From NCBI GenBank assembly GCA_050251055.1, contig JBFWNL010000007.1:64001-128000 (forward strand): a stretch of 64,000 nucleotides of DNA, in the 5' to 3' direction. This document shows positions 4,431 to 35,826 of the stretch, one piece after another; the stretch's first letter is position 1, and each line of letters opens with the position of its first letter. The translations under genes were made by a program, and so were the position numbers. Below the pieces are notes generated by a model, which had not been told where the DNA came from, did no database searches, and was given only the letters and a program-made list of their open reading frames with translations. This DNA is from Bacteriovoracia bacterium (lineage in GTDB: Bacteria > Bdellovibrionota > UBA1018 > JBFWNL01).

Positions 4431-4531
4431 GTTCTGGTCAGGGAACCATAACCCCCCTTTCGTTTCAATTATAAACTATGGTAAATACAGAAGTCTGAAG
4501 ACGTCTGAATCAGATTCGAAAGGATAACGCA

Positions 4532-7523: not shown

Positions 7524-7534
7524 ACCTCGATTGC

Positions 7535-7562
7535 TTATCGGTATGCCGGGACTGTGAGCTTA
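7535..7562 (-). promoter_or_regulatory. sigma28 (FliA)-like promoter
   Basis: TAAG-N16-ACCGATAA, 11 nt before the ATG at 7523; spacer is one nt longer than canonical. Confidence 0.5.
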
Positions 7563-17107: not shown

Positions 17108-18223
17108 ATGAGCTCATCGCAAAAAACGCTTCGCGGCGCGGTTATCGGCTACGGTTTCATCTCAGGCAAAGGCCATATCCCGGCCTACCTCGAGCGTGCT
17201 CAAAAGCAGCAGGATGTCCAGATCACGGCGGTGGCCGACATCTGCGAGGGCCGGCGCAAGATCGCGGCCGAAACCCTGCCTGGCGTGCGCGTTTACAGTG
17301 ACTACGAATCGCTGCTCGCCGGCGAAACCGGCAAGCTTGATTTCGTCGATATCTCCACGCCTCCTTGTGACCACGCGAAGATCGCGCACGCGGCGTTTGA
17401 TCGCGGCTTACACGTGCTTTGCGAAAAGCCCCTGACCACTTCCTTGGAAGACGCCCGTGCGCTTTTGAAACATGCTCAGGACGCCCAGCGCGTGCTTTTC
17501 CCTTGTCACAACTACAAGCATGCGCCCGTGGTGAAAGCTATTCGCGAGATCATCGACAGCGGCAAGATCGGCCGCGTGAAGTCGGTGGCGCTCAGCACCT
17601 ACCGCAACACGCACGCCAAGGGCGTGACCGAATGGAACACGCACTGGCGCCGCGAAAACCGCTACAGTGGCGGCGGCATCGCGATGGACCACGGTAGCCA
17701 TAGCTTTTATTTGATGTTCGATTGGCTGGGATCGTATCCCACCGCGGTCACGGCGAAGATGTCGACCCAAGGCACGAAGCCCGATGGTTCGCCCATGGAC
17801 ACGGAAGATAATTTCACCGCGACGCTCACGTTCCCTACGGGCTCGGCCCACGCCTACCTGACTTGGACGGCGGGCGTGCGCAAGGTCATTTACAGCATTC
17901 AAGGCGAGCGCGGCGCGGTCACCGTCGATGACGACGATCTCCAGCTGGCGACTATCGAAAAAACCTCCGGCCCCGACGTCGCCCAAGGCGCCGTGAAATG
18001 GAACGTCGAGAAGCGCTCGATCGCTTCGCATTGGATGGATGCGAGCCACGTAAGCTGGTTTAACTCGCTTTTTGATCAATTCAAGGGCGCCATCGCGCGC
18101 GGCGAATTCGTGGGAAAAGAAGCCCGCGAGTCGTATCTCTGCATCGAGCTCATCATGGCCGCTTACGCTTCGGCCGCCGATCGGTGCCAGGAACAGCCTC
18201 TTTTGGGCTTGCCCACCGCGTAA
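17108..18223 (+). CDS. Gfo/Idh/MocA-family oxidoreductase
   Basis: IGYGFIS Rossmann motif, CEKP, GGGIAMDHGSH. Confidence 0.92.
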   Translation: MSSSQKTLRGAVIGYGFISGKGHIPAYLERAQKQQDVQITAVADICEGRRKIAAETLPGVRVYSDYESLLAGETGKLDFVDISTPPCDHAKIAHAAFDRGLHVLCEKPLTTSLEDARALLKHAQDAQRVLFPCHNYKHAPVVKAIREIIDSGKIGRVKSVALSTYRNTHAKGVTEWNTHWRRENRYSGGGIAMDHGSHSFYLMFDWLGSYPTAVTAKMSTQGTKPDGSPMDTEDNFTATLTFPTGSAHAYLTWTAGVRKVIYSIQGERGAVTVDDDDLQLATIEKTSGPDVAQGAVKWNVEKRSIASHWMDASHVSWFNSLFDQFKGAIARGEFVGKEARESYLCIELIMAAYASAADRCQEQPLLGLPTA

Positions 18224-18355: not shown

Positions 18356-19723
18356 ATGGCTCAGCCAACGACCCAGTCGAGTACAAAGAAAAGCACGGCC
18401 CGCAACATTACACCCGCCAAAGGGAAGCTCGCGGTTCTCACTCCCGGCATGGGGGCGGTGGCCACTACTTTTTACGCCGGCGTCGAAGCCGTCAAGAAAG
18501 GCATCTCGCAGCCAATCGGTTCGTACACTCAGCTCGGCAAGATTCGTTTGGGCAAGCGTACGGAGAATCGTCATAAGCTGGTGAAGGATCTCGTACCGCT
18601 CGCTTCGCTCGATCAGCTGGTGTTCGGTGGCTGGGACATTTTCCCCGAGAACGCTTACGAAGCCGCGAAGAACGCGCAAGTGCTCGAAAAAGAATTGCTG
18701 GAAGCCGTGAAGGAACCGCTCTCGAAGATCAAGCCAATGGCGGCTGTTTTCGATCACGAGTTCGTGAAGCGCATCGACGGCCCGAACGTCAAGAAGGGCG
18801 CCAACAAGATGGAGCTCGCCGAACAGCTCCGCGCCGACATCCGTAATTTCATGAAAGACAACGGCTGCGATCGCGCCGTGATGGTTTGGTGCGCGTCCAC
18901 CGAAGTGTATACGCCGCCTACGGCCGTGCACCAGTCGGTGAAGGCTTTCGAAGAAGGCCTGCGTAACAACGATCCTTCGATCTCGCCCGCGCAGATCTAC
19001 ACGTACGCCGCGCTGAAAGAGCGGGTGCCCTACGCCAACGGATCGCCGAACGTGTCGGTCGAAATGCCCTGCCTGCAGGAGCTGGCCAACGAAATGGCTA
19101 CCCCGATCTCGGGTTCGGATTTCAAGACGGGTCAAACGTTGTTGAAGACCGTCATCGCTCCCGGCCTGCGCAACCGCCAGTTGGGCGTCGCTGGCTGGTA
19201 CAGCACCAACATCCTCGGTAACCGCGATGGCGAAGTGCTCGATGATCCGGGCTCGTTCAAGTCGAAGGAAGTCACCAAGAGCGGCGTGCTCACGGACATC
19301 TTCTCGGCGGAAATGTACCCCGAGCTCTACAAAGACATCCACCACGTGGTCCGCATCAATTACTACCCACCACGCGGCGATAATAAAGAAGGCTGGGACA
19401 ACATCGACATCTTCGGTTGGCTGGGCTACCCGATGCAGATCAAGGTGAACTTCCTCTGCCGCGACTCCATTTTGGCCGCCCCGATCGTGCTCGATCTGGC
19501 GCTGTTCATGGATCTCGCGTCGCGCGCCGAAATGCGCGGCATTCAAGAGTGGCTTTCGTTCTACTTCAAATCGCCGGTCGTGAAACCGGGCCTGCGCGCC
19601 GAGCATGATCTGTCGACGCAGCTCCTGAAGCTCGAGAACACGTTGCGCTTCTTCACCAACGAAGAGCTCATCAATCACTTGGGCCTCACGCATTACGGCA
19701 TCGACGAAGGCGAAAACGCCTAA
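18356..19723 (+). CDS. ino1: Inositol-3-phosphate synthase
   Basis: GMGAVATT, VWCASTE, ANGSPN, GSDFKTGQT, NILGNRDG, NFLCRDSILAAPIVLDL, FYFKSP; SD AAGGAG. Confidence 0.96.
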   Translation: MAQPTTQSSTKKSTARNITPAKGKLAVLTPGMGAVATTFYAGVEAVKKGISQPIGSYTQLGKIRLGKRTENRHKLVKDLVPLASLDQLVFGGWDIFPENAYEAAKNAQVLEKELLEAVKEPLSKIKPMAAVFDHEFVKRIDGPNVKKGANKMELAEQLRADIRNFMKDNGCDRAVMVWCASTEVYTPPTAVHQSVKAFEEGLRNNDPSISPAQIYTYAALKERVPYANGSPNVSVEMPCLQELANEMATPISGSDFKTGQTLLKTVIAPGLRNRQLGVAGWYSTNILGNRDGEVLDDPGSFKSKEVTKSGVLTDIFSAEMYPELYKDIHHVVRINYYPPRGDNKEGWDNIDIFGWLGYPMQIKVNFLCRDSILAAPIVLDLALFMDLASRAEMRGIQEWLSFYFKSPVVKPGLRAEHDLSTQLLKLENTLRFFTNEELINHLGLTHYGIDEGENA

Positions 19724-19749: not shown

Positions 19750-20685
19750 CTAGCGACCCGAGTTCTTTAGGTATCGAATCACGTGTTCGACATCCATTCC
19801 TTTCGGCGGAGGGTTGCGTTCGAATAGGTTTCTAACGACCTCCTCTAGACGTCGTCCGTCCAGGAGACGGATAAAGTGGTATATGTAGGGGTCTTTCTTC
19901 GCTGCTAGTTCTTGGAGAGCTTCCACAATTTTGGGTTCTTGCGCTTTCGAGAAGTGAGATGCGTGCCCGGCTGCGACGTCATACACGGCTCGGAAAATAT
20001 CCGTAGGGGATGCTGTGTCGACGTTCATCAACCACGCTTCTCCGGCAAGAAACTTTTCGAGTGCTCCAGGGACAGCCTCTTCGATGACTACGGTTCCTTT
20101 GGGCTGGGTCTTGAATCGGAGTAAGCTCCGCGGGGTCATGGGTGCCTGGTTAGCAGACGCTTTGAATTCTCGGGCGCCGATGACGCCAAGAATTAGACTG
20201 GGAGCTTGGTCGATCACGAATGGGCTATCAAGTTCTGTCGCGATCGCGGTCGCCCGTTGTAAGATTGCAGACTCGGGGGTTCCGTCCCCCCTAAATGAAA
20301 AGGCGTGCACGACGTCGACGTCACCGCCAGCTCGGAAAGTGCCCGAACTGGACGAACCCACGATTTGTATACCGATGCCCTCTGACTCCAATCTGTCTAA
20401 GTAGGCCACGAAGGAGGGGTCGTAGACTTCGTGTGCATCTTGCCGTGATAAAATAACCGCCGAGCGCCCATTTTTCCCATAGGGAGCCAGCCGCTGCCTG
20501 GAGCGGGTAATCAGTTTCTCGGTTGAAGCGTTTAGGGGAAACAGGGAGTCGGCGGCACCATGGTCCAGGACTCTGCGGATTTTTTCTTCTGGGCAGCTTC
20601 CTAGGGCAGCGCTGTTTTGTAGGCAGAAATAGGCAAGCAGGAAAAGGCTAGGTAGGTTTCTTACGTTGATTGTAAATCGAGCCAT
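19750..20685 (-). CDS. Hypothetical exported protein lying antisense within the inositol cluster
   Basis: 311-aa ORF with hydrophobic N-terminus; looks more AT-rich than its neighbours by eye. Confidence 0.6.
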   Translation of the reverse strand: MARFTINVRNLPSLFLLAYFCLQNSAALGSCPEEKIRRVLDHGAADSLFPLNASTEKLITRSRQRLAPYGKNGRSAVILSRQDAHEVYDPSFVAYLDRLESEGIGIQIVGSSSSGTFRAGGDVDVVHAFSFRGDGTPESAILQRATAIATELDSPFVIDQAPSLILGVIGAREFKASANQAPMTPRSLLRFKTQPKGTVVIEEAVPGALEKFLAGEAWLMNVDTASPTDIFRAVYDVAAGHASHFSKAQEPKIVEALQELAAKKDPYIYHFIRLLDGRRLEEVVRNLFERNPPPKGMDVEHVIRYLKNSGR

Positions 20686-20846: not shown

Positions 20847-21779
20847 ATGATGCACATCGACGGAACCTTCTTTGAGTTAACCGGGGACTTGATCAACACG
20901 ATCATTTTGTTCGGTCTGCTCTTCGCCCTCATCATCGCTTACGTGATTCGTTTGGTCGTGGTGGGGCGCGCGCGCTTTGATCGCGTGGATCGGGAGGGCA
21001 CGGGTTTGCTTTTGAAGAAGGGCCCCATGGAGATGGTCTACTGGAGTTTGCAGCCTTTCGCCCGTTTGGCGGTGTTCTTTCGGGTGACGCCAAACATGCT
21101 TTCTTGGGCTTGTTTGGTTTTGGGGCTGGCGGCGGGGACTTGCTTGGCCTTCGGTCACTTTGGTTTCGGAGCGGCCTTCGCTACCGTGTCGGCGCTGCTC
21201 GACGCACTGGATGGCATGGTCGCGCGTATGACCGGACGGGCTTCCGACGCGGGCGAAGTGCTCGATGCCACCGTTGATCGCTACAGCGAATTTTTCTTTC
21301 TGGGTGGGCTTTGCGTTTATTATCGCGATATGTCCGAGCTGGTCGTGCTGACGCTGCTCGCGCTCATGGGCTCGTTCATGGTGAGCTACTCCACCGCCAA
21401 AGCGGAAGCGCTGCAGGTGAAGCCACCGCGCGGAAACATGCGGCGTACGGAGCGCGCGATTTTCATGACCGTGGGCGCCGCGCTCGCACCCATCAGCATT
21501 CCTTGGTTTGAGACGCCGGCGTACCTCAACGTGCCGGTCCCCGTGGGTTATCCCATGGTGCTTGCGGTGGGGATCATCGCCGTGCTGGCGAACTTCTCGG
21601 CGATCGAGCGCCTAGTGGCGATCGCGAAAGCCGTGCGCGCACGGGAAAACCAGGCACGTGAGCAGCTCAAGCAAGCGGAAGCGCTCACGGAAGCCCGGCA
21701 GGAGCTTGAGCAGATTGCCGGCTCTGACGACGCCGAAGCCGCGCCCGCGAACGCCACCAGCCGGTCGCCCAAGGTCTAG
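20847..21779 (+). CDS. CDP-alcohol phosphatidyltransferase (phosphatidylinositol-phosphate synthase-like)
   Basis: TPNMLS; DALDGMVAR-x8-GEVLDATVDR signature; SFMVSY..AKAEA; RTER. Confidence 0.92.
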   Translation: MMHIDGTFFELTGDLINTIILFGLLFALIIAYVIRLVVVGRARFDRVDREGTGLLLKKGPMEMVYWSLQPFARLAVFFRVTPNMLSWACLVLGLAAGTCLAFGHFGFGAAFATVSALLDALDGMVARMTGRASDAGEVLDATVDRYSEFFFLGGLCVYYRDMSELVVLTLLALMGSFMVSYSTAKAEALQVKPPRGNMRRTERAIFMTVGAALAPISIPWFETPAYLNVPVPVGYPMVLAVGIIAVLANFSAIERLVAIAKAVRARENQAREQLKQAEALTEARQELEQIAGSDDAEAAPANATSRSPKV

Positions 21780-21846: not shown

Positions 21847-23214
21847 ATGGAAATCCAGCAGCCGAAAAATCAAAAGCCCGTCTTGAAAACCCCCGTGCCT
21901 GGACCGAAGAGCCAAGCGATTCGTGCCCGTGAGGAGCAAGCGCTTGCCCCCGGCTTACAAGGCTTTGCGCTCATGGCGGGCATCGTGGTCGACGAGGCTC
22001 GCGGCAGCGCCGTGACGGATGTCGACGGCAACACTTTTCTCGACATCATTGGCGGTATCGGCGTGAACGGACTGGGCCACTCACACCCTAAGTTCGTCGA
22101 AGCGATCCAGAAGCAGGTGGCGAAGGCTTCGGTGGGGAGCTTCACTTCGGAAGCGCGCGTGCGCTTGTTCGAGCAGCTTTCGAAAAATCGCCCGACCCCC
22201 TCGGTGTATCGCACGCAACTTTATTCCGGAGGCGCGGAAGCGGTGGAGAGCGCGCTGAGGCTCGCGAAGTGCCATACCGGCAAGTACGAGTTCATCAGTT
22301 TTTGGGGCGGGTTCCACGGCAAAACCATGGGTGTGCTATCGCTCATGGGCTCGGACTTTAAAAATGGCCTCGGCCCGATGGTGCCGGGTTCGCACATTGT
22401 CCCATACGCGAACTGTTATCGCTGTCCCTTTCAGTTAAAGAATCCAAGCTGCGGCATGGCCTGCGTGGAGCATCTGCGCAAACACGTTAAGCTGGGGACC
22501 GCGGGCGCGGTCGCGGGCATCATCGCCGAGCCTATGCAGGGCACGGCCGGAAATGTGATTCCGCCGAATGACTTCTTGCCCGCCGTGGCGGAAGTGGCGA
22601 AGGAGATCGGCGCGCTCATGATCATCGACGAAATGATCACGGGCTTTGGTCGCACGGGTAAGTACTGGGGCGCCCACCATTCGGGTGTGCAGGCCGATAT
22701 CGTCACGCTCGGTAAGCAATTCGGAGGTGGTTTTCCGATGTCGGCCGTGATGACTACGGATGACATCTCAAAGGCGCAGCCCTGGAGCGTTCCCTCGGGG
22801 TCTTCTTCCAGCTACGGCGGAAACCCGTTGGGCGCGGCGGCCGGCGCGGCGGCGCTCACAATCATCGAGGAAGAGGGATTGGTCGAGAACTCCCGTAAAA
22901 TGGGGGATTATTTCCTGGGCAAGCTCAAGCCCTTCGAGGAAAAATACTCCTTTATCGGCGAGGCGCGGGGAGCGGGACTTTTCCTGGCGCTCGAGATGGT
23001 TCGCGACAAGGTGACGAAGGAGCCGCTCAGCAAAAAGGCGTGTCAGCGTGTTTTCACCGAGTGCCTCAAGCGTGGATTGCTCACCATGGCTTACGCGCCA
23101 AGTTTCCGCATTCAACCCGCGATGTCCATCGATACCGGCACCATCGATGCCGCCGTGGGCGTGCTGGAAGAAGTTTTCGACTTAATGGAAAAAGAAAAAC
23201 TTTGGCAGGCGTAG
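21847..23214 (+). CDS. Class III PLP-dependent aminotransferase
   Basis: SGGAEAVE, GFHGKT, EPMQG, IDEMITGFGRTG, TLGK (PLP Lys), SYGGNP. Confidence 0.92.
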   Translation: MEIQQPKNQKPVLKTPVPGPKSQAIRAREEQALAPGLQGFALMAGIVVDEARGSAVTDVDGNTFLDIIGGIGVNGLGHSHPKFVEAIQKQVAKASVGSFTSEARVRLFEQLSKNRPTPSVYRTQLYSGGAEAVESALRLAKCHTGKYEFISFWGGFHGKTMGVLSLMGSDFKNGLGPMVPGSHIVPYANCYRCPFQLKNPSCGMACVEHLRKHVKLGTAGAVAGIIAEPMQGTAGNVIPPNDFLPAVAEVAKEIGALMIIDEMITGFGRTGKYWGAHHSGVQADIVTLGKQFGGGFPMSAVMTTDDISKAQPWSVPSGSSSSYGGNPLGAAAGAAALTIIEEEGLVENSRKMGDYFLGKLKPFEEKYSFIGEARGAGLFLALEMVRDKVTKEPLSKKACQRVFTECLKRGLLTMAYAPSFRIQPAMSIDTGTIDAAVGVLEEVFDLMEKEKLWQA

Positions 23215-23256
23215 GCGCCTGCCTTTGGGGGTCCTGATCGGGTCCCCAAGGGAGCG

Positions 23257-26200
23257 CTAGTGCGCGTTCACTTCGCGCTCGTGCCCGGCCTCGAGGTAAG
23301 CTTCGGAACCGTGGCGATGGGTGCGCTCCCGGTATTCGCCGACGGTTTCCACGACCAAGTAGATCAGAATCGCGTAGGCCGAACCCCACATCAGATCCAG
23401 GATGTAGTGGTGGTTGAGGTACACGGCCGAAAAGCACATCAGCAAGTAGAAGAAGACGCAGAAACGCCGCAGGGATCCAAATTTGTATGCGTAAAGCACC
23501 GAGATCAGCGGATAAGCCACATGCAAAGATGGGATGGCGCCGAAGACGTCGGCTGCACGCCCGTACATCTCGCTAAAAAAGTGGGTGCCGAGGATCTGAT
23601 CGAAGCGCGCGGCGCCCGCCGAACTCGCGGGCACGTCGAGACGGGCGGGGCCTAATCCGTACTGAGCCACGTACCAGGGCGGCGCGGCCGCGTACCAGTA
23701 GTAGGTCGAGTAGCCCAGGCAGTTGGTCCAAAAGAACGTCCACATCATGCGGGGAGCCTTGCGCACGATCTCCCGCGCGGAATATTTATGCGTCCCGTGG
23801 AAGCCCAGCCAGAACATGAAGTAGGCGGCGCTGAAGACGAAGAGCGCGACGAAAACCAGGTAGGCGAAGCCGGTAACGAGGTCGAGCGCCGGATGCGTAT
23901 GTAGCTGCCACCACTCGTTAGGGGTAAGCACGCCCTTCGCGGTTTGGATGCCAAAGAAACGCTTATCGAAGAGATACGGCTCCTTCACGTGGATCGGCCC
24001 CCGCAGCCAGTCGGCATAAAAACGCTGGCTGTCGTAGACGATGCCCACGAGGAATACGGGTAGCAGGAACTTCAAGAACTCCCGGGTCGGTTTGCCGAGG
24101 TAAGCTAGCGCCAGCATCAATCCCGAAATGAGCAGGTGATCGGAGCGCAGGCCTCCGAGCGCAAGGAGGGAAAGCACGTACCCCGCGATCAGCCCCAGCG
24201 GCATCCAGCGCTCGCGCGGCGAAAGCGATCGCCACCACGCGGGCCAGCGGAAGATCCAGTCCCAGCCGCGGTAACGTAGCAAACGGCCCCAAACCTGGAG
24301 CGGCTCCATGATCCGGAAGCGAACTTTTGGGCGGGCATTTTCGATCTGCAGCTTTTCGGAGTCGCGATAGTAAAGGTAAGCCGGTAAGGCGATCATCGCC
24401 GCGAGCAGGGTGGTGATTTCACCCAAGACCGCGAGCTTACCGAAGCTAACGAAAGCCTGGTTGCCGGCGATGAGGAGCGATCCGTAACCGACGACCGTCG
24501 TGAGGCTCGCCATGCCGACGGCGCTGCCGGTGCTGCGGATTACCCCCAAGATGCTGCCCCGGCCATCGAGGCGGTAACGCTGGAAGATATTTACGCCGTA
24601 GTCGACGCCGATACCGAAGGTGATGGGGAGCGCGATGAAGTTCAGGAAATTGATCTTGAAATCGAAACCCAGGATCACGCCCGCCATCCAGGTTACCCCC
24701 AGGATCAGTGAGAAGAGGCAGAGCGAGATCAAGCGCGCGCTCCGGAAAAGCGCGATCACGAGCAGGATCACGGCGCCGAAGGCGAAGAGCGTGGCCCGAG
24801 GTCCGTCACGCTTAATGGCGTCGATCATGTCGGCGGTCACGGGGAATTGACCGGCTACCGGGATGCCGGGCGTGACCTTGTCCGCCACCGCGCGCAGGTC
24901 GCGGACGAACTGCAGGAGCTTGTTGCTGTCCTTCGTGGGGTTGGTCACCGGCGGTTCCACCAACACGAGATTGCCCACGGCCCCGCTTTTTTCCGTGAAC
25001 TTGCGCAATACCATCGGCGGCAGATCCTGGACGGACACCGGTACGTAGCTTTCCTCGTTCAGAAACTCGGACGCGAGTTTCTTTTCCTCGGGCGAGAGCG
25101 CGGACAGAATGCGCGGCGTGAGCTGCGACTTGATTTGGCGCAGGACCCGGATCTTTTCCGGCTGGCCCAAGGGCACGAAATCGTCGATTGAGTAAACGGA
25201 AGCGATCAGGCTCTGGCTGCCCTGAGACCTCTGCAGTTTCTTGGCTTCTTCCGCCACGCGCACGGCCTCCGCCTTGGTGTGCGGCATGATTACGGTGGGC
25301 GAGAGCCAGCGCTGGAAGACCTCGTCGATGCGTTTGGAGAGAAACGCCGAGCCCTGCTCGATGCTGCGTTTATCACGCAGTTTTTCCAGGTTGGTTTCCA
25401 GGATGGCGTCGCTGTAGCTAAAGAAGGTGATGAGCGAGACGACGGTCAGCGCGAAAGTCAGGCCCCAGATCGGGCGGGAAAACTTACGAATGAGCCAGAT
25501 GATGGGCTCGGCGAAAAACTGGAATGGCTTGGGGTCGCCAGGAAGCTCGCGCTTTACTCGGATCGGCAGGATGCGGTGCCAGACCGTGAGAAGGGCCGGC
25601 AGCAGCGTGTAGGCCGAAATCCAGCAGATCACCATGCCGATGAGGCCGATCACGCCGAATTGCTTGAAGCCGCGGAAGCTGGTGAGCATGAGCGATCCGT
25701 AGGAAAGCCCTGCCGCCAGCGCGGCGACCAGGGTCGCGGTATAGGTCTGAGTCAGGGCGAGGTGCACGCCGCGAATGTTTCCATTGCCCTTGCGGCGCTC
25801 CTCCATGTAGCGCGCGAGGTAGATAATGCCGAAGTTGATGCCGTTGCCGATGACGATCGAGCCCAGGAACGCGGAGTTGGCGTTAAGGTAGCCCACCGCG
25901 AAGAACGAAACGCCGAAGGTCGCCAGGGTGCCGATGAATAGGCTCACCATGAGCGCGAAGACCCCGCCGATCGTTCGGTAGTAAACGAGCATGAAAACCG
26001 TGCACAGGATTACTACGATGATCGTAGAGAGCTCGAGATCCTCCATGAGCGAATGATGCTCTTCGATGAGGTTCTGGACGCTGCCGGAAAACTTCACGTC
26101 CAGCCCCGCCCCGTATTTGGCTTCGTTGCCCTTCGGGTCGAGACCGGCGATAGCTTGATCGACGGCGTGACGAAGGCGTTCGGCCCCATCGATGCCTGAG

Positions 26201-26805
26201 GCGGCCCCCGGTAGATCGACGAGTAGAATACGGATCGTCTCGTCTTGATTGGCGTAATAGCCGTTCGGGAAGTGGGAGTAAGACGATGTCTTCTGGTTGT
26301 ATTTCGCCCGCATGGCGTCGAAATCGAGCTTGGGCTCCGGAATCTCGGTGGTCCGGAAAATATTCAAGGGGTTGTAGAGTTCTTTTTCGTAGCTGATGCG
26401 GTCGCGGATGTAGGTTCGGATGGAGGTGAGATCATCGATCTCCATGTAAAGTGCCTTGCGCGAATCAAAGAACTTCAGCTCATCGGTGATCTTATACTCG
26501 GTACCGGCGACGATGGACTTTGGGACTTGCTTCAGGCGGTCGACCAGATCGTGCAGGAATCGGAGACTGCCCTTGGGGTTGGGCGAAAAAATCAGCACCG
26601 CGAGATTCTCGGTGGACTCGAGCCGTTCGGTCACTTCCTTGAGATCGATGACGCTGCGAGCGTCCGTGGGCAAAAGCTCTTCGATGTTTGTCCGGAGATT
26701 CTTGTAAAGCTGGATCGAGTAATAGCCACCCCAGATAGCGATGAGCAACCCGATGATGCAGATCAGCCCGGCTCGTTTGAGCACTAGGCGGGAGTAGAAA
26801 TTCAC
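23257..26805 (-). CDS. MMPL/RND-family transporter fused to a C-terminal Aur1-like (IPC synthase/PAP2) domain
   Basis: Two RND halves (IGNGINFGII; FGIGVDYGVNI), then AAPPWY, AGAARFD, FGAIPSLH and YLNHHYILDL in a single 1182-aa frame. Confidence 0.88.
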   Translation of the reverse strand: MNFYSRLVLKRAGLICIIGLLIAIWGGYYSIQLYKNLRTNIEELLPTDARSVIDLKEVTERLESTENLAVLIFSPNPKGSLRFLHDLVDRLKQVPKSIVAGTEYKITDELKFFDSRKALYMEIDDLTSIRTYIRDRISYEKELYNPLNIFRTTEIPEPKLDFDAMRAKYNQKTSSYSHFPNGYYANQDETIRILLVDLPGAASGIDGAERLRHAVDQAIAGLDPKGNEAKYGAGLDVKFSGSVQNLIEEHHSLMEDLELSTIIVVILCTVFMLVYYRTIGGVFALMVSLFIGTLATFGVSFFAVGYLNANSAFLGSIVIGNGINFGIIYLARYMEERRKGNGNIRGVHLALTQTYTATLVAALAAGLSYGSLMLTSFRGFKQFGVIGLIGMVICWISAYTLLPALLTVWHRILPIRVKRELPGDPKPFQFFAEPIIWLIRKFSRPIWGLTFALTVVSLITFFSYSDAILETNLEKLRDKRSIEQGSAFLSKRIDEVFQRWLSPTVIMPHTKAEAVRVAEEAKKLQRSQGSQSLIASVYSIDDFVPLGQPEKIRVLRQIKSQLTPRILSALSPEEKKLASEFLNEESYVPVSVQDLPPMVLRKFTEKSGAVGNLVLVEPPVTNPTKDSNKLLQFVRDLRAVADKVTPGIPVAGQFPVTADMIDAIKRDGPRATLFAFGAVILLVIALFRSARLISLCLFSLILGVTWMAGVILGFDFKINFLNFIALPITFGIGVDYGVNIFQRYRLDGRGSILGVIRSTGSAVGMASLTTVVGYGSLLIAGNQAFVSFGKLAVLGEITTLLAAMIALPAYLYYRDSEKLQIENARPKVRFRIMEPLQVWGRLLRYRGWDWIFRWPAWWRSLSPRERWMPLGLIAGYVLSLLALGGLRSDHLLISGLMLALAYLGKPTREFLKFLLPVFLVGIVYDSQRFYADWLRGPIHVKEPYLFDKRFFGIQTAKGVLTPNEWWQLHTHPALDLVTGFAYLVFVALFVFSAAYFMFWLGFHGTHKYSAREIVRKAPRMMWTFFWTNCLGYSTYYWYAAAPPWYVAQYGLGPARLDVPASSAGAARFDQILGTHFFSEMYGRAADVFGAIPSLHVAYPLISVLYAYKFGSLRRFCVFFYLLMCFSAVYLNHHYILDLMWGSAYAILIYLVVETVGEYRERTHRHGSEAYLEAGHEREVNAH

Positions 26806-26895
26806 CCTCGAGAGTTAACCTGAGTGACGGCGTCCGCAAAGCAGTTTCAGCAATTAGCGTTGTGTTTCCGCCTATTTTGGTCTTTACTATTGGTC

Positions 26896-27678
26896 GTGAA
26901 TCTCTGTCAGTTACTCGTGCGCTGGACCAAGCGATTGGGCGAATTTATGCTCTTCGTCAACGAGACGATCAAAGTCTTTCCGGGTCTGTGGAAGCGCCGC
27001 GACTTGTTCTTCCGTCAGTGTGAATTTATCGGAGTGACTTCGACAGGTATTATTCTCGTGGCGGCGCTCTTTATGGGTGCTGTTTTAGGTTATCAACTTT
27101 ACGTGTCATTTCATTACTTTGGTGCCGAGGCTTTACTCGGCGGAAGCGTCGGGGTGGCACTCTTCCGGGAGCTGGCTCCCGTCATGGGCGCGGTGATGGT
27201 GACCGGGCGGGCGGGCGCGGCGATGGCCGCTGAGATCGCCAGTATGCGAATCTCCGAACAGATCGACGCGCTCGAGGTCATGGCGATCGATCCGATGGAA
27301 TACCTCGTGGCTCCGCGGGTGGTGGCGGGCGTTTGCATGATGCCGCTTCTGTCCGTCCTTTTCGCGGGCATCGCTTCGCTTGCGGCCGCGGGCGTGGCCT
27401 GCGGAGTGATGGGATTGAGCACGCCGGTCTATTGGAGTCAGTTTTCCAAAGTGGTCGATCCGATCGAGCTCACCCATTGCGTGACCAAGGGAGCGATGTT
27501 CGGGTTGGTGCTGACCTGGGTGGGTTGTTTCTATGGGTTTCGTGCGCACGGGGGCGCCTACGCGGTAGGCAAGGCCACACGTACGACGGTGGTGGTGAGC
27601 TGTCTCACGATTCTGCTCTCGGATTACGTGCTGACGTCGCTACTTCCATTTGGATTTGCCAGACTGATTGCCGAATGA
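26896..27678 (+). CDS. mlaE: MlaE-family lipid ABC permease
   Basis: RELAPV, GRAGAAMAAEIASMRISEQIDALEVMAIDP, VGKATRTTVV; start uncertain (26824-26947). Confidence 0.92.
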   Translation: MNLCQLLVRWTKRLGEFMLFVNETIKVFPGLWKRRDLFFRQCEFIGVTSTGIILVAALFMGAVLGYQLYVSFHYFGAEALLGGSVGVALFRELAPVMGAVMVTGRAGAAMAAEIASMRISEQIDALEVMAIDPMEYLVAPRVVAGVCMMPLLSVLFAGIASLAAAGVACGVMGLSTPVYWSQFSKVVDPIELTHCVTKGAMFGLVLTWVGCFYGFRAHGGAYAVGKATRTTVVVSCLTILLSDYVLTSLLPFGFARLIAE

Positions 27679-27706
27679 CCGATTGCAGAATAGAAAGAGT
27701 ACGACT

Positions 27707-29197
27707 ATGGCAGGCGAAAACATCCGAACCGTAAAAATCAAAGTGGGCCTCTTCTCCTTGGCCGGACTGGCGCTGATCGGCGTGATCACCGTCTTCGTGA
27801 ACGATCGCCCCTTCTGGTGGCGGGGGTGCGAGTTGGTGCACGTGAACATCGAGGATGCCACGGGCCTAAAGACGAAATCCCCCATCCGTTCGCTCGGGTT
27901 GCAGATCGGGTACCTTCATTCGGTCGAGCTCTTTCAGCAGCAGGTCCGTTTGGGGATTTGCATCACCGCGCCGGTGGAAGTGCTGCCGGACACGCGCGCC
28001 TATGTGAAGGGCGAAGGTTTCTTGGGCGACAAATTCGTGGAGCTAAAGCCCGTGAAGTACGTTGGGCAATCGCGCGATGAGACGTTGAACGACGCAGCTC
28101 CCTCGCAGACCTCGACTCCCGCGCCGGCGCAAACCTGGGCACCCAGCCGGCCGATCCACCCATTGCTTTGGGCGATGGGGTGGGGCGTGGACGCGGCTTG
28201 GGCGGCCAAAACCAACGTGAACGTGGCCGAGGCGAAGGATAGCCGCAAGGAGATCCCGGTCGGTGAAAAGAGCCAAGACGTGCAGGAGTTGGTGAACGAG
28301 GTCAACGGCCTCGTGGGCGAACTCTCCGTGCTCACGAACAATCTCAAAACGTCGCTCAACCCGGTCGACATGCAGCGCACGATGCAGAAGTTGAATCGTA
28401 CGCTTGAGAACGCGGCGAAAACGCTTTCGCCGGAAGGCAATCTCACCACTACGGCCCAACGCGCGCTCGCGAAACTCGAAGACGCCATCGAGCAGATGCG
28501 CGACATGGTGACGCGAATCAACCAGGGCGAAGGCTCGGTGGGCATGGTGATCAACGACCCCAGCTATGCCGAGGAGCTGCGCGATGCCCTCCGGAATTTG
28601 AATTCGCTGCTTTCGAAGGTGAGCGGCGTACGTTTCCAGGTGGATGTCGGAGCGGAAGCTTTGCCGGCTTACAGCGATGCGCGGGGCTGGTTCCGGTTGG
28701 GCATCTGGCCGTCGGCCGACCGCTACTATCTGCTCGGTTTGTCGGTCGATCCGCGCGGGAAAACCAATGTGCTGGACGTCACCACCACGGCGGGCACGGC
28801 TAGCACCACGACTCGTTCGGTAACCACTGAGCAAGGAGGCATCCTGCTCACCGCGATGTTGGGTAAGGTGTTTTGGCACCGGCTTGATTTTTCGGCCGGC
28901 ATCTATCACGGGGACGCCACGCTGGGCGTGGCTTTCAATCTGGGACCGCAGACCAATGAGGAGCTGCTCCGGGTGGAGGCGCAGGGGTTTAGCGGCGCGG
29001 ATGGAAGGGGCGGCCACCAGTTCGACGGCCGCGCGAACGCCATCTGGTTTCCGTCGCAGAGCCCTTACCTGAAGACGATTTACATCCGCGGCGGGGTGGA
29101 TTCGGTTCGCCAGGTAAACGGAAAGTTTTCGTATTCGGTGGGCGCCGGCATCTCGTTCAACGACCGGGACATCAAGATGCTCTTCGCGCTCCGCTAG
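27707..29197 (+). CDS. MlaD/MCE-domain protein with helical stalk and beta-rich C-terminal domain
   Basis: IKVGLF transmembrane anchor; DATGLK...GLQIG...GFLGDKFVEL MCE motifs; GEGSVGMVIND. Confidence 0.88.
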   Translation: MAGENIRTVKIKVGLFSLAGLALIGVITVFVNDRPFWWRGCELVHVNIEDATGLKTKSPIRSLGLQIGYLHSVELFQQQVRLGICITAPVEVLPDTRAYVKGEGFLGDKFVELKPVKYVGQSRDETLNDAAPSQTSTPAPAQTWAPSRPIHPLLWAMGWGVDAAWAAKTNVNVAEAKDSRKEIPVGEKSQDVQELVNEVNGLVGELSVLTNNLKTSLNPVDMQRTMQKLNRTLENAAKTLSPEGNLTTTAQRALAKLEDAIEQMRDMVTRINQGEGSVGMVINDPSYAEELRDALRNLNSLLSKVSGVRFQVDVGAEALPAYSDARGWFRLGIWPSADRYYLLGLSVDPRGKTNVLDVTTTAGTASTTTRSVTTEQGGILLTAMLGKVFWHRLDFSAGIYHGDATLGVAFNLGPQTNEELLRVEAQGFSGADGRGGHQFDGRANAIWFPSQSPYLKTIYIRGGVDSVRQVNGKFSYSVGAGISFNDRDIKMLFALR

Positions 29198-30529: not shown

Positions 30530-31222
30530 CTAGGCGACGATCGCGCCTTTGAGGCTGTCGAAGATGAATTTGCCAATCTTCGATAGCTCTTCCGGTTCGA
30601 GCTGATTAAATCTCAAGCCCAAGCCGTTATTCCCCTTCCAGACGACGGTGCTCATGGTGTTGAGTCCGCCCAGATCGGGGATCTGGGTATGCAAGGTTTC
30701 GTTCACCGACCCGAGGTCCTCGGTGGTTTCCACGAAGGCCCCTCCCACGGATAGGTTCGAAATAGTCGCTTCCTTGCCGTTGCCGAGGCGGATCGGGATC
30801 CGCGTTTTAATCCGGCGAAACTTGCGCTTTTCGTTGCCATCGTACTTGGATTGCGTGTTGAGCACGTACTGAATGGCGAGCGTTAGGCTCTGCTCGTTCG
30901 TTGGCAGCTTGAGAATCACTAGCTGTTCGTATTTGATCATGTTGACCAAAACCTCATTCGTGGTCTGGCCAGCCAGGAAAACCACCGGCAAGTTGGCTTG
31001 CGAGTTTTTCAGCTGGTCGACCAGGCGGTCTCCGTTGAGATCTGGCAACTGGTATTCGGTGATCAGTATGTCGGGGCGATTTTTTTCAAATAAGGACAGC
31101 GCGGCTTGCCCATTGGAAGCCATGATGGCGTTGAAGCCATGCTTGATTAGAATTCGGCAGACGTCGACTTTAACGCCGGTGTCCGGGCTCACCACGAGCA
31201 CTTTCGTCTGTTTTGCTGTCAT
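30530..31222 (-). CDS. Receiver-like domain plus PilZ domain protein
   Basis: REC fold (PDILITEYQLPDLNG); PilZ motifs RKFRR and NLSVGG. Confidence 0.85.
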   Translation of the reverse strand: MTAKQTKVLVVSPDTGVKVDVCRILIKHGFNAIMASNGQAALSLFEKNRPDILITEYQLPDLNGDRLVDQLKNSQANLPVVFLAGQTTNEVLVNMIKYEQLVILKLPTNEQSLTLAIQYVLNTQSKYDGNEKRKFRRIKTRIPIRLGNGKEATISNLSVGGAFVETTEDLGSVNETLHTQIPDLGGLNTMSTVVWKGNNGLGLRFNQLEPEELSKIGKFIFDSLKGAIVA

Positions 31223-31947: not shown

Positions 31948-34900
31948 TTATTTTTCGTCGCCCGGCTCGCTTCCGGTTTCGGATGAAGACTCGATGCCTC
32001 GCTCCGTGACGCGCGTGACGACCTCGGCCGCGACTTTCTCACCGCCGGGCACGGCGTATTCAGCGGAGATTTTCGTCTCCCCTGACTTGAGGGCTACGGC
32101 GTGACCTTCATTTTCCTTGGCGTTGCTAATGCTCAAGATCTCGCGGTTATCGCTCTTCCAGATCGCAAGCGCCGTGACGTCGACACGCGATCCGTCGCCG
32201 CCACGCGCGTAGGCCTTGAACTTGCGTTTTTCGCCGACGGCAAGCGCACCGCGGTCGGGTTGAATTTCCAGTCGGGTGGGATCGACTTCCTTTACCGTCA
32301 ACGCCATGGAGACGGATGGGAGGTCTACATCCGGCAATTCGGCCACGATCTTGGCCACGCCCGCGCCTAGGCCCTGGCAAATTCCCGTCGCGGCGCCCAC
32401 GCTCGCGATCCCCCTGTCTTCAGTCGAGAAGATGACTTTCGCGGTGACGTCGTCGATGCTTCCATCTGAAAGGGTAGCTAGAACCTGGGCGGAGTAGCGA
32501 TCTCCTTTGGCGATGGTCGCTGCGTTTTCTGCGAACGCGAGCTGTCGCGGCACGGCGGGCGTTACTTGAACCAGGCGGCTGCCCCAAGTGGATTCCCGGT
32601 CGGCAAGCTGTAGGACCGCCGCGCCCACGCTCACTCCAGTGATCATACCTGGCTGCATGGCGCTCGCGGACAGCACCCCGGGGCGATCGGACGTCCATAC
32701 CAACTGCGAGGTGACGTCACGCACGGATCCGTCGCCGTAGTAACCGCGCGCGGTGAGGCGTAGCGAGTTCCCCTTCGCCACCGATAGCGATCCGAGGGGT
32801 AGGATTTCCACCCGTAGCAGGCGCGCCGAGGTGACTTGAAGTTTTGCGTGCCCCGTGACGTCGCCGCCGGAATATGCGCTGACAAAGGACATTCCGTCGA
32901 GCACCGAGCGGATCGCGCCTTCGCGGTGACTCGACATGCGGGCGGTGATTTTGGCGGTTTTTCCGGCCTGGATCCCGATGAACGTGCCCGGACGGGCTTC
33001 GTCCGCTTTCGCCACGGATTCGTCGTCCGCTGTCCACTGCACTGCGGAGGTCAGGTCGCGGCGCGAGCCGTTCGTATAGATGCCGAGCGCGGTAAAGGCT
33101 TGCAATTCGCCGGCCGCCACGCTCGCTTCGGGGGGAGCGATTTCGATCCAGGCGAGTGCGACGTCCTGTACGGTGACGCTCGCACGGCCGGTGATTCCAT
33201 CCAGGGTGGCCGAGAGTTCCGTACGTCCCGGTTTTTCCCCGGCGCGGAATGCACCCGATCCCAAGGGCTTCGCCACTTGCGCATCAGCCGATGCCCACGC
33301 GGCCTCGTGGGTGAGATTGCGGCGCGAGCCGTCCTGATAGACACCGGTGGCATTAAAGGTTTCGGTTTCGTCGATTTCTAGAACGGCATCCAGGGGGGAG
33401 AGTTCGATCGCCACGAGCGTCTTTCCCGCGGCGGTTACCTTTAAAAGCGCGTACCCCGTGACCACGGCTTTTTCGTTCGCTCCCGCGGCCCCCGTGGAGA
33501 AGGAAACGCGTGCTTCTCCTTCCTTAACGCCTTTGAATGCGCCCCCGCCTTCGCTGGCCGCTACTTCCGGTTTCTCCGATCGCCAGATGCCTTCGCGTAG
33601 GGGTTCGGCCCGCCCATCGCTGAACTTTCCGATCGCCTGGTAATGAATGAGCTTTCCTGCTTCTACTTGACCGGAGTTCCCGAGCGGAGGTACGAGTTCG
33701 ATCGAGACGAGTTTGAGTTCATTGGGTTCGCGGTTTTGCACCTCAAGCGTGGCTTGCGCAACGAGGCCGCTGCCCGGTTCTTTGGCCATGACGCCGAGAC
33801 GGCCGGCCTTTAGTCCGCGGGCGATGCCCGAGGCCTCGATCGTCGCCAGCTCCCGATCGCTTACACCCCATTCGACTTTGGTGGAAATGTCCTGGGTGCT
33901 TTGATCGTCGAAGGTCCCTTTGGCGGTAAAGACGATAGCTTGGCCTACCCGAACCGCACCGCGTTCCGGATTGATCTGGATCGAGGTCAGCTGCGGGGTC
34001 GTCGCGAGAACCACCAGGGCCGCCTGGGCCGAACGGCGTTGCCCGGGCTCGGTGGCGGTGATCGTGACCCGGCCGGGTTTCAGGGTTTTAAATAGTCCGT
34101 TTTCCTCGAGCGCCGCTACGGAAGGGTCGGAGCTTTGCCATTGGGCTTCGGCGGTGAGCTCACGCGAGCTCCCATCTGAATACGCCCCGATGAAGTGGAA
34201 CCGTTGAGAAGTGCCCGCCCGCACCGATGCGGTGAAGGGGTCCAAGAAAACGTTCACGAGACTCGGGGCACGGCGTAGAACCGTGACGTCCAGCCGCCCG
34301 GTTTTGGGAGACGTGCCGTTTCCCATTTCGACGGCTTCGATACGCGTGACGCCTTCGCCGAGGGCCACCAACTGCCCTTCGGATCCCGGCGCGTTACTCA
34401 CTTGGGCGACGGCACCGACCGTTGAGTTCCACACCACCCGGTCGGTGAATGGCACGCTCGTGCCGTCGGAAAAATGTCCCGTGGCCGAGAGGGGCCGGAC
34501 ATCTTCCACGTACACGGGGCCGACAAGGGGAGCAATCGTGATACCGGTGAGTACGGCGGGAGTGACCGTCACTACCGCCCGGGCGGACTCCACCACTTCC
34601 GCGGGGCGCTCGAGGCTTCCGGGCGCGCTGAGCGCGATCAGGTTTCGCACCGCCGACGCCATGATTTCCGCGTTGCCGGGGCGTATTCCGGTGACGACTC
34701 CCGGAGACCCGGGAGCGTTGCTAACGAGGGCGACGTCGGTCTGTCGACTGCGCCAGGCGACGCCGCTGGTGATATCTGAGGTCGTGCCGTTGGAAAACCG
34801 TCCCAAGGCGCGAAGCGGAACTCGTTGGCCGGCCGGGACGCTTGCGGCCGCTGGATTGACATCAATCGATAGCAGCTGTTCGGGACGAATCACGACGTTA

Positions 34901-35826
34901 ACATAGACGGGGGGAGCGCCGGCGTAACTGACGAGCACTTCCGTGGAGCCGGCGCCTTGCGCTCGGGCGACGTTCAGCCGGACCGGGTCGAAGCGAAGCA
35001 CCGCGGAGTTCTGGCTCTGCCAGGTCACTTGGGAGGTGAGGTTCACGTATTGACCACTGGAGTTGGTGAAGATCGCCTCGGCTTGGAACGGGATCTCCGC
35101 CAGAGTCCAAGGTTGGGCGACGCTACTCGGCGTGATTCGCAGGGGTGAAAGCAGCTCGGCGGCGGCGACGCGTACGCCATTGAGGTCGGCCGTGAGCCCG
35201 CCGAGGGTGGCGCGGACGTTAATCAAGCCAAGGCTTGAGTTTGACGCCGTTAGACGGCCCGGATTCCCCGCGGAAAAATTTGCGATCGAGGGCTGGGATG
35301 AAATCCAGCTCGCCTGGGAGGTGACATCTCGGGTAGTGTTGTCCGTATAAGTCATCGTGGCTTGGAGATTTCGGAACGAACCTTGGGGAATACCGCCGAC
35401 TAGCGGCGATACTCGCAGTCGGAGGGGGGCCGCTTCCGAAACGCGGACGGAAATTTCTACGAAAACTTTTTTCTGATTGGCGGGATTCTGCAAGGCCGCG
35501 CGAATTCGGGCCGCTCCCCGGCCTTGGGCGCGGAAGGTACCGGCGGAGGTGACCGTCAACACGGGGTCACCGCTGATTTCCCACTCCAGTTCTTGGGCCT
35601 GTAGCATCTGCGCCGGTTGCCCGGCGCTGATTTTGTAGATGCGAATCTGATTAGTGGTGCCGAGCGGCCAGCTGGCGTTGATGGAGGAAAGATCCGTCTC
35701 AAGCGAGAACTCCGCTTTTGCGAGCTCATCCTGACGGTACAGCCCCGTGCAGCCGGTGGTGGATATAGATAGAGCGACGATTAACCCAAAGAGTAAACGA
35801 ACCAAGCGAGAACCCCCTGCTTTCAC
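31948..35826 (-). CDS. Lipoprotein with about 13 Big_2 (intimin/Lig-type Ig-like) repeats
   Basis: Lipobox TTGC; 13 units of ~90 aa with a G.(F/Y).DG..(D)VT...W.S.D..VA pattern. Confidence 0.9.
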   Translation of the reverse strand: MKAGGSRLVRLLFGLIVALSISTTGCTGLYRQDELAKAEFSLETDLSSINASWPLGTTNQIRIYKISAGQPAQMLQAQELEWEISGDPVLTVTSAGTFRAQGRGAARIRAALQNPANQKKVFVEISVRVSEAAPLRLRVSPLVGGIPQGSFRNLQATMTYTDNTTRDVTSQASWISSQPSIANFSAGNPGRLTASNSSLGLINVRATLGGLTADLNGVRVAAAELLSPLRITPSSVAQPWTLAEIPFQAEAIFTNSSGQYVNLTSQVTWQSQNSAVLRFDPVRLNVARAQGAGSTEVLVSYAGAPPVYVNVVIRPEQLLSIDVNPAAASVPAGQRVPLRALGRFSNGTTSDITSGVAWRSRQTDVALVSNAPGSPGVVTGIRPGNAEIMASAVRNLIALSAPGSLERPAEVVESARAVVTVTPAVLTGITIAPLVGPVYVEDVRPLSATGHFSDGTSVPFTDRVVWNSTVGAVAQVSNAPGSEGQLVALGEGVTRIEAVEMGNGTSPKTGRLDVTVLRRAPSLVNVFLDPFTASVRAGTSQRFHFIGAYSDGSSRELTAEAQWQSSDPSVAALEENGLFKTLKPGRVTITATEPGQRRSAQAALVVLATTPQLTSIQINPERGAVRVGQAIVFTAKGTFDDQSTQDISTKVEWGVSDRELATIEASGIARGLKAGRLGVMAKEPGSGLVAQATLEVQNREPNELKLVSIELVPPLGNSGQVEAGKLIHYQAIGKFSDGRAEPLREGIWRSEKPEVAASEGGGAFKGVKEGEARVSFSTGAAGANEKAVVTGYALLKVTAAGKTLVAIELSPLDAVLEIDETETFNATGVYQDGSRRNLTHEAAWASADAQVAKPLGSGAFRAGEKPGRTELSATLDGITGRASVTVQDVALAWIEIAPPEASVAAGELQAFTALGIYTNGSRRDLTSAVQWTADDESVAKADEARPGTFIGIQAGKTAKITARMSSHREGAIRSVLDGMSFVSAYSGGDVTGHAKLQVTSARLLRVEILPLGSLSVAKGNSLRLTARGYYGDGSVRDVTSQLVWTSDRPGVLSASAMQPGMITGVSVGAAVLQLADRESTWGSRLVQVTPAVPRQLAFAENAATIAKGDRYSAQVLATLSDGSIDDVTAKVIFSTEDRGIASVGAATGICQGLGAGVAKIVAELPDVDLPSVSMALTVKEVDPTRLEIQPDRGALAVGEKRKFKAYARGGDGSRVDVTALAIWKSDNREILSISNAKENEGHAVALKSGETKISAEYAVPGGEKVAAEVVTRVTERGIESSSETGSEPGDEK

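Follow-up and report, generated by a model that had tools for sequence, protein, structure and literature searches.

An open reading frame of the Bdellovibrionota joining an HpnN-like RND pump to an Aur1-like PAP2_3 domain

Why should a putative lipid exporter and a putative enzyme of lipid head-group transfer be made as one polypeptide? The question is posed by a gene in a 64,000-nucleotide (nt) stretch of DNA, here called the window, from a Bacteriovoracia bacterium of the phylum Bdellovibrionota (positions 64,001 to 128,000 of contig JBFWNL010000007.1, assembly GCA_050251055.1). The open reading frame (ORF) 23257-26805 on the minus strand is a single uninterrupted frame of 1182 amino acids (aa), and its GTG start lines up with the N-termini of homologues in the alignment. 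An RND/MMPL module is followed by a PAP2_3 domain, so that two genes which are normally adjacent and translationally coupled appear to be naturally fused. As the best reading we incline, slightly, to a periplasm-facing phosphoinositol-type head-group transferase that feeds a proton-driven lipid exporter.

The fused gene and its two modules

The gene is made up of the following parts.

23257..26805, minus strand: whole fused gene, one open frame from a GTG that coincides with the aligned first residues of homologues
24331..26805, minus strand: RND/MMPL module of HpnN-like (HAE3) type, aa 1-825, two periplasmic domains carried on 12 transmembrane (TM) helices
24220..24330, minus strand: linker, aa 826-862 (37 aa), from the alignment and an AlphaFold2 (AF2) model
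23257..24219, minus strand: PAP2_3 (Aur1/BT_1522-like) domain, aa 863-1182, eight predicted TM helices
23204..23223, minus strand: terminator-like hairpin of 8 pairs (7 G-C) with a T-rich tail, 34 nt past the stop codon, a consensus match only

A first-pass annotation made from the letters of the window had described the gene as an MMPL/RND transporter fused to an Aur1-like inositol-phosphorylceramide synthase domain. This architecture was borne out by Pfam, which matches MMPL in two stretches (E 2.2e-33) and PAP2_3 at aa 966-1150 (E 5.6e-13, 49.6 bits vs a cut-off of 27). The motifs which had been quoted are all found at their places in the translation, and the C-terminal part, put at about 23257-24240, agrees with an Aur1-like region starting near aa 850-863 (about nt 24220-24250). 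Such an agreement of motifs and domains is far beyond chance. A consensus scan of 22900-27100 for promoter-like sites gave none, and a scan of this kind is not evidence of absence. No RNA data set is listed as covering the stretch.

An error of assembly at the junction, which the annotation had itself raised, is contradicted as far as the contigs show. Logan contigs from two public runs, one spanning 23000-26523 and the other 23000-27000, differ from the window at no position and contain no gap, and the word depths of the two junction-spanning contigs are 6.85 and 14.6. Both runs belong to one study of a landfill metagenome and are possibly the source samples, so that they support a reproducible assembly and not independence. 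The stronger support for the junction comes from fused proteins in other assemblies. Among the 120 matches listed for a search with the full-length protein there are three further MMPL + PAP2_3 proteins, P0003, P0004 and P0005, with 58%, 57% and 47% identity; 115 of the 120 are unfused RND proteins of about 776-855 aa. A search for longer domain-bearing proteins gave five more fused ones, P0247-P0251, of 1278-1311 aa. Of these, P0250 aligns collinearly with the window's protein along 1152 aa (37% identity), and GNGINF, GIGVDY, and the catalytic triad are all found in it. Nine fused proteins are thus at hand including the window's own, the eight others coming from other assemblies, and the triad is kept in eight of the nine.

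The RND module resembles HpnN. HpnN-type RND families of NCBIfam match from aa 190-570 onward, none of the curated cut-offs being reached (TIGR03480, HpnN, 265 bits vs 752; NF052374, 151.5 vs 1100; TIGR00921, 148 vs 352), and the best sequence match among solved structures is HpnN 5khn (E 3.1e-29). A full-length AF2 model from a 69-row alignment (mean predicted local distance difference test score, pLDDT, 88.5; predicted template modelling score, pTM, 0.69) shows an RND fold, in which 12 TM helices are combined with two periplasmic domains. With this model Foldseek returned HpnN first (E 5.1e-27, TM score 0.69 on the target), the next matches being MmpL4, MmpL5, and MmpL3. Two motifs of the module bear on proton relay.

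25831..25848, minus strand: TM4 motif GNGINF, aa 320-325, with Asn324 at the position of the HpnN Asp (GVDF)
24598..24615, minus strand: TM10 motif GIGVDY, aa 731-736, with Asp735-Tyr736, no other titratable relay residue being present; GVAF in HpnN

The asymmetry between GINF and GVDY is invariant in 11/11 aligned homologues and in 9/9 fused proteins. Since it is found in fused and unfused proteins alike, the single Asp on TM10 is a trait of the family and not a feature of the fusion. The earlier remark that only one acidic TM site is kept therefore holds as regards the asymmetry itself, but the asymmetry is not special to the fused protein: it is family-wide, and HpnN has a single Asp too.

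The C-terminal domain is related to two kinds of inositol-phosphoceramide synthase. Over aa 881-1155 a single NCBIfam family matches, the phosphoinositol dihydroceramide synthase NF052609 (E 1.2e-55). When the C-terminal 322 residues were compared with solved structures, only chains of yeast Aur1 (9vj3/9ivc) were found at E <= 0.001 (E 1.4e-16). The conserved motifs, to which GAARFD at aa 1064-1069 is to be added, are located as follows.

23671..23688, minus strand: AAPPWY, aa 1040-1045, at the start of a long loop equivalent to EL3 of Aur1; identical in Aur1
23521..23544, minus strand: FGAIPSLH, aa 1088-1095, His1095 aligned with Aur1 His255
23395..23421, minus strand: YLNHHYILD, aa 1129-1137, His1133 corresponding to Aur1 His294 (nucleophile) and Asp1137 to Asp298

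In the accessible text of two cryo-EM papers (PMC12122681, PMC13133130) His255, His294, and Asp298 are the catalytic triad of Aur1. The His/His/Asp triad recognized by the first-pass annotation was confirmed, H1095, H1133, and D1137 aligning with these three residues, and it is invariant in 22/22 aligned family members, which share 88 invariant columns. In the full-length model eight hydrophobic helices are seen (863-882, 888-902, 905-935, 972-1003, 1018-1039, 1094-1109, 1114-1130, and 1135 onward). The domain was also modelled separately (pLDDT 80, pTM 0.79, the long EL2/EL3-type loops at low confidence) and compared with known folds.

Aur1 9ivc_A: Foldseek E 7e-6, VIA Z 16.2, 281 residues aligned
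Aur1 9vj4_A: Foldseek E 2e-5, VIA Z 16.2, 260 residues aligned
SMSr: VIA Z 10.4, 202 residues aligned
PAP2 phosphatases (PgpB-type chains): VIA Z 9.2-12.2, 164-190 residues aligned, core fold shared

The VIA alignment to Aur1 covers model residues 1-313 and with them all eight helices; the Foldseek TM score is 0.59, and the TM scores with Aur1 lie at 0.55-0.62.

The C-terminus of an RND pump lies in the cytoplasm, and the linker region of the fused protein is rich in K and R (13 K+R in aa 810-867). Taken together with the eight helices, this places the loops with AAPPWY, His1095, His1133, and Asp1137 on the periplasmic side in the predicted topology. The catalytic loops should thus correspond to those of Aur1, whose active site is luminal according to the accessible text of the cryo-EM papers (PMC12122681, PMC13133130).

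Origin and rarity of the fusion

The linker (aa 826-862) is not conserved. In the AF2 model aa 826-834 have a pLDDT <50 and a helix is predicted at 835-860, in which the WPxWW motif of the N-termini of stand-alone enzymes is kept (aa 854-858). An in-frame ATG at 24307-24309 (Met833) is situated within the linker where a separate gene would start, and it is probably the former start of a separate PAP2_3 gene; no clear Shine-Dalgarno sequence was seen upstream of it.

Stand-alone PAP2_3 proteins are abundant, with 2735 matches, lengths of 290-391 aa, and identities of 57-69%. The gene context was counted in 80 genome loci from a contig scan, many of the contigs ending too early to tell. These loci are mostly labelled Bacteriovoracaceae, Oligoflexia, Bdellovibrionales or Bdellovibrionota, and a few Nitrospinota. 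An RND gene is also present in 31 of the 80 loci, and in 27 it lies upstream on the same strand: directly adjacent in 19, with an MFS gene in between in 7, and at a distance of 4.9 kb in 1. The intervening gene is an MFS_1 gene of 415-432 aa (L014, L049 at 6648-7910 on the plus strand, L054, L057, L059, L074, and L077). In at least six loci (L016, L038, L047, L052, L056, and L072) a candidate start of the PAP2_3 gene overlaps the RND stop codon by 4 nt. The RND frame is ended by a stop codon in all 27 same-strand loci, none of which is fused. Likewise, 42 of 251 sampled genomes of the phylum hold the domain, and the long frame (1185 aa) was found in the window's genome and in 0 of the 41 others. 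The fusion is therefore rare. As the simplest history suggested by these sequences, a stop codon would have been lost, or a small indel acquired, between two coupled genes.

Two quick trees, each of 64 rows (every second match plus chosen rows), were calculated. In the PAP2_3 tree the window's domain is sister to that of the unfused P0125 (SH-aLRT 98), and the fused state changes at least twice (starred branches). The RND tree unites four fused proteins with the unfused P0013, P0035, and P0114 in one clade with a support of 95, at least one change being forced. A single origin of the fusion in the Bdellovibrionota group is thus rejected by the PAP2_3 tree but not by the RND tree; judged from the trees, one gain followed by fissions within the RND subclade is possible. 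The second lineage, that of P0250, is 37% identical and stands outside the group full of unfused pairs, and for this reason we take its fusion to be independent, as far as sequence relationships can indicate.

Proposed role and its alternatives

The genes around the fused gene suggest where a lipid substrate could come from.

17108..18223, plus strand: GFO/IDH/MocA oxidoreductase, conserved cluster member
18356..19723, plus strand: myo-inositol-1-phosphate synthase (MIPS), Pfam NAD_binding_5 E 1.8e-98
19750..20685, minus strand: unexplained ORF of 311 aa with a signal-peptide-like N-terminus, between MIPS and the CDP-alcohol transferase
20847..21779, plus strand: CDP-alcohol phosphatidyltransferase, similar to phosphatidylinositol phosphate (PIP) synthases, its best families being inositol-phosphate lipid synthases
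21847..23214, plus strand: aminotransferase of class III, a conserved neighbour of the PAP2_3 gene that runs convergently to the fused gene
26824..27678, plus strand: MlaE permease, divergent from the fused gene
27668..29197, plus strand: MlaD/MCE protein of 509 aa, divergent from the fused gene

The gene order of the cluster recurs in relatives. Around the PAP2_3 gene an aminotransferase is found in 47 of the 80 loci, a CDP-alcohol transferase in 36, a GFO oxidoreductase in 20, MIPS in 17, and MlaE in 12; 18 loci have an upstream RND gene and enough upstream room for MlaE. The CDP-alcohol transferase scores 116 bits with archaetidylinositol-phosphate synthase, 101 with the BT_1523 family, and 96 with PIP synthase, all below the cut-offs. 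No ABC ATPase gene lies beside MlaE/MlaD. The ORF 19750-20685 has no Pfam or NCBIfam match and no tblastn match in the 80 loci, and Atlas gave weak nucleotidyltransferase-like leads (score 0.91, 103-120 shared features); since the gap between MIPS and the CDP-alcohol transferase is short in relatives, it appears to be genome-specific. Downstream of the cluster, and probably unrelated to it, are a response regulator fused to a PilZ domain (30530-31222, minus strand) and a 1292-aa protein with four Big_2 domains (31948-35826, minus strand).

A ceramide acceptor could be provided from elsewhere in the source genome (3.77 Mb, 21 contigs, 93.5% complete). The best family of an alpha-oxoamine synthase encoded there is serine palmitoyltransferase (Spt), at 502 bits and above its own Kbl and BioF scores.

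G000:C6 ~128620-131014 (L088:9573-12018): Spt-like gene, directly followed by a GNAT gene, a pair conserved across the order

The GNAT gene of the pair (372-424 aa) is named only as GNAT family in Atlas. Of the 46 genomes of the order, 44 have a relative of it, which by coordinates adjoins the Spt-like gene in at least 19. The best E-values of the Spt family fall into two classes, with a gap between 1e-132 and 1e-107; the strong class is found in 127 of the 251 genomes, in 39 of 42 domain holders vs 88 of 209 non-holders. The three holders outside the strong class (G122, G245, and G104) are each 92-93% complete and in 120-660 contigs. Upstream of the Spt-like/GNAT pair lies a carotenoid-type cluster with a lycopene cyclase, a polyprenyl synthetase, an amine-oxidase-type desaturase, and a phytoene/squalene synthase.

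From this material we infer an enzyme activity, a donor, an acceptor, a transport function, and a hand-over of the product in the following way. The N-terminal 825 residues would work as a proton-driven lipid exporter of the HpnN/MmpL type with the single relay Asp on TM10, and the C-terminal 320 residues as a lipid phosphotransferase with eight helices, like Aur1 and BT_1522. In a mechanism analogous to that of Aur1, His1133, activated by Asp1137, would attack the phosphodiester of a phosphatidylinositol-type donor, which the neighbouring inositol-phosphate synthase and PIP-synthase-like genes could supply. Diacylglycerol would be released, and the phospho-inositol head group, possibly aminated, would be passed to the hydroxyl of an acceptor lipid, most likely a (dihydro)ceramide from the Spt-like/GNAT gene pair. 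The active-site loops would be on the periplasmic side, beside the periplasmic lipid-handling domains of the pump, and the pump would pick up the product at the outer leaflet of the inner membrane and move it in the direction of the outer membrane. That synthesis is channelled directly into export, as the first-pass annotation had proposed, is plausible on comparative grounds and would fit the recurrent fusion, the coupled neighbour genes, and the periplasmic topology. A stronger version, in which the fused protein by itself both makes and exports an inositol (perhaps amino-inositol) phosphosphingolipid, with head-group addition on the periplasmic leaflet and direct hand-over to the pump, is put forward tentatively.

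Several observations weigh against a transferase of this kind feeding the pump. The score of the domain with NF052609 is 189 bits vs a curated cut-off of 480, and its relatives score alike (stand-alone P0125 176, P0003 182, and P0250 192 bits); with the whole clade below the cut-off, the domain is a homologue and not an equivalog of the Bacteroides enzyme. In the fused P0005 (1149 aa), whose branch is very long, the nucleophile His has been lost (YLNQGY); its domain also has no YDSQRFY block and may be a pseudo-enzyme module. The pTM of 0.69 of the full-length model does not fix the placement of the two modules relative to each other. As regards the acceptor, the Spt-like gene is below its family cut-off (502 vs 640), and the GNAT gene beside it has no NCBIfam match, which leaves its identity as a ceramide synthase unproven. 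Furthermore, the strong Spt class is near-universal in the families concerned and kin are not independent, so that the association in 39 of 42 holders is largely phylogenetic; it shows compatibility and is not proof. We know of no partner or counterpart of Kei1 in bacteria. The activity of yeast Aur1 requires Kei1 (accessible text of PMC12122681/PMC13133130).

It can also be asked whether the pump is dedicated to this enzyme. With the RND part as query, 66 of the 251 genomes gave a match at E <= 1e-100, including 27 of the 42 domain holders. The 15 other holders, mostly of one family, gave none at this threshold, and in 26 sampled genomes a strong RND orthologue (E <= 1e-200) occurs without a PAP2_3 match; both counts argue against an exclusive partnership. 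Some genomes have two or three RND paralogues, one of them beside the PAP2_3 gene (e.g. G209:C234). In genome G199 an RND orthologue carries a Polyketide_cyc2/START-like lipid-binding domain in place of PAP2_3.

L091 (G199:C284) 692-3994, plus strand: RND-START fusion, RND part 51% identical
L091 (G199:C284) 4003-5226, minus strand: Glyco_transf_21 (GT21) gene, convergent, beside the RND-START fusion

GT21 is the ceramide glucosyltransferase family. A further arrangement is seen in L090, a GC-rich metagenome relative of the second lineage, where the gene after an unfused RND gene encodes an MlaC-like periplasmic protein of the lipid-binding kind (2569-3375, plus strand); this locus, the only one from a metagenome scan with P0250, has no PAP2_3 gene. 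The RND family looks like a set of lipid exporters whose partners, head-group enzymes or lipid-binding modules, vary. The PAP2_3 family, for its part, is also fused to a fatty-acid desaturase domain in P0252 (654 aa) and to a flavin monooxygenase domain in P0243 (843 aa). The desaturase fusion and the pump fusion of G199 link the family to lipid modification.

We considered four alternatives to a phosphoinositol-type transferase feeding the exporter. The first, unlikely in our view and still the most serious of them, is that the transferase is correctly identified and its chemistry is different: the head group would be a modified one, e.g. amino-inositol phosphate, or the acceptor would not be a ceramide, and the RND pump would export that lipid. 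The aminotransferase and the GFO oxidoreductase, both present in the window and conserved in the counts given above, suggest that the head group is possibly not plain inositol, and they may modify it, e.g. by oxidation followed by amination. The low score of the domain against the Bacteroides equivalog points in the same direction. Neither enzyme is tied to the inositol ring, however: the aminotransferase matches no specific family (best the 'acetylornithine aminotransferase family' with 362 bits, below the cut-off), and the GFO protein matches inositol 2-dehydrogenase weakly (60 bits vs 355).

The second alternative, which the first-pass annotation had offered, is that the PAP2_3 domain is the missing phosphatase of the cluster, converting PIP to phosphatidylinositol (PI), and not a transferase. 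The PAP2 superfamily includes lipid phosphate phosphatases with the same His/His/Asp chemistry, PAP2 phosphatases are among the fold matches, and a scan of the neighbouring ORFs found no PgpA-type gene in the cluster. A PgpA homologue is, however, present elsewhere in the genome (C3:343421-343846). The nearest relatives by sequence and fold are two characterised inositol-phospho-ceramide synthases, Aur1 reaching Z 16.2 vs Z 9-12 for the PAP2 phosphatases; as the core fold is common to both, the fold comparison does not by itself decide the activity. PAP2 lipid phosphatases carry the motifs KX6RP (C1) and SRX5HX3D (C3); neither occurs in any of 22 family members, in which the C3 equivalent reads SAVYLNHHYILD. 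PIP made on the cytoplasmic face would, moreover, lie across the membrane from a periplasmic site. In Bacteroides, according to the accessible text of PMC9246714, deletion of BT_1522 abolished phosphoinositol dihydroceramide and left PI unaltered, the PIP phosphatase being the PgpA-like BT_1525. A phosphatase is therefore weakly disfavoured, and we consider it improbable.

Third, the fusion could be functionally meaningless, either a sequencing or consensus error, by which a stop codon disappeared or the frame shifted within a short intergenic stretch, or a recent neutral read-through with the two halves working as if separate. The unfused state of the 27 loci and the 41 genomes, the unconserved linker with an ATG at the expected separate start, and the possible origin of both supporting contigs from the source samples would fit this. 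Nevertheless, the two contigs agree across the junction, eight other proteins have the same architecture, five of them in the lineage that is 37% identical, and neither half is truncated or lacks a conserved motif; we regard a meaningless fusion as very improbable. Least probable of all is that the PAP2_3 module is a lipid-binding or gating subunit of the pump and not, or not only, an enzyme, as P0005 without its nucleophile and the non-enzymatic START-like domain at the same position in G199 might suggest, since the window's domain and seven of the eight other fused proteins keep every catalytic residue and the family is strongly conserved.

Comparison with known systems

The fusion joins two known kinds of protein. 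Nothing was found in print on it, nor on a link between inositol phosphorylceramide synthase and MMPL, in a search that covered journals outside subscription. A search joining Bdellovibrionota, inositol, and sphingolipid returned nothing relevant in the texts accessible. Bdellovibrionota homologues may already appear in Supplementary Table 5 of PMC9246714 and in the gene lists of bacterial ceramide papers. For Bdellovibrio (Bacteriovorax) stolpii, serine palmitoyltransferase and sphingophosphonolipids are on record (accessible text of PMC6148460), and these phosphono-sphingolipids are the only sphingolipids of Bdellovibrionota found in the literature consulted. The occurrence described here extends Aur1/BT_1522-type enzymes and the inositol-lipid cluster to this phylum.

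As regards transport, no flippases or lipid transporters have been identified according to the accessible text of PMC11087976, and the accessible part of a preprint (10.64898/2026.04.12.717747) describes the mechanism as a mystery and puts forward LptFG paralogues for Caulobacter. The recurrent fusion of a transferase with an RND pump, as 'Rosetta-stone' evidence, nominates a transporter family for the export of sphingolipids or inositol lipids, and this pointer to a candidate exporter family is its main value. It also nominates the periplasmic leaflet as the site of the last biosynthetic step. If this is true, the HpnN-like RND family of the Bdellovibrionota and of the related second lineage would carry sphingolipids between the two membranes, from inner to outer, by a route distinct from the LptFG-paralogue system proposed for Caulobacter. 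A single polypeptide would moreover be suited to structural work on the hand-over of a lipid from enzyme to transporter.

Among characterised pumps, the hopanoid transporter HpnN of Burkholderia (PDB 5khn, 6wu0) is the best match to the RND module in sequence and fold; both are pumps of the HAE3 type with a single relay Asp, a type moving lipid from the inner to the outer membrane. In HpnN the Asp is on TM4 (GVDF) and TM10 reads GVAF, whereas the HMMER alignment shows the opposite for the fused protein. HpnN also has no C-terminal enzyme domain, and the fused protein is far under the HpnN cut-off. No hopanoid genes are among the 16 ORFs scanned (13088-37309), to which the search for them was confined. 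MmpL3, MmpL4, and MmpL5 of mycobacteria share the MMPL fold and export lipids or siderophores. In MmpL3 one Asp-Tyr pair is present on TM4 and another on TM10, of which the fused protein keeps the TM10 pair only.

On the side of the enzyme, yeast Aur1 (PDB 9ivc, 9vj3, 9vj4) is the best fold match and has eight TM helices, equivalent H/H/D residues, and an identical AAPPWY motif, although its identity to the domain is only about 18-25%. In the Bacteroides cluster PI is made through PIP, and BT_1522 then makes phosphoinositol dihydroceramide (accessible text of PMC9246714). BT_1522 of B. thetaiotaomicron (Heaver et al. 2022) is likewise a Pfam PAP2_3 protein, its family NF052609 is the only curated NCBIfam family matched by the domain, and its gene, too, has MIPS and a CDP-alcohol transferase of the PIP-synthase type in the same cluster. 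It differs in being unfused, whereas the protein described here is joined to an RND pump in the phylum Bdellovibrionota. The Bacteroides cluster has a PgpA-like PIP phosphatase; that of the fused gene has none and adds the aminotransferase, the GFO dehydrogenase, and MlaE/MlaD. A fusion of consecutive inositol-lipid steps has a precedent in the CDP-alcohol phosphatidyltransferase-HAD hydrolase of Prevotella veroralis (accessible text of Heaver et al. 2022). In that protein two enzymes are joined, whereas here an enzyme is joined to a transporter.

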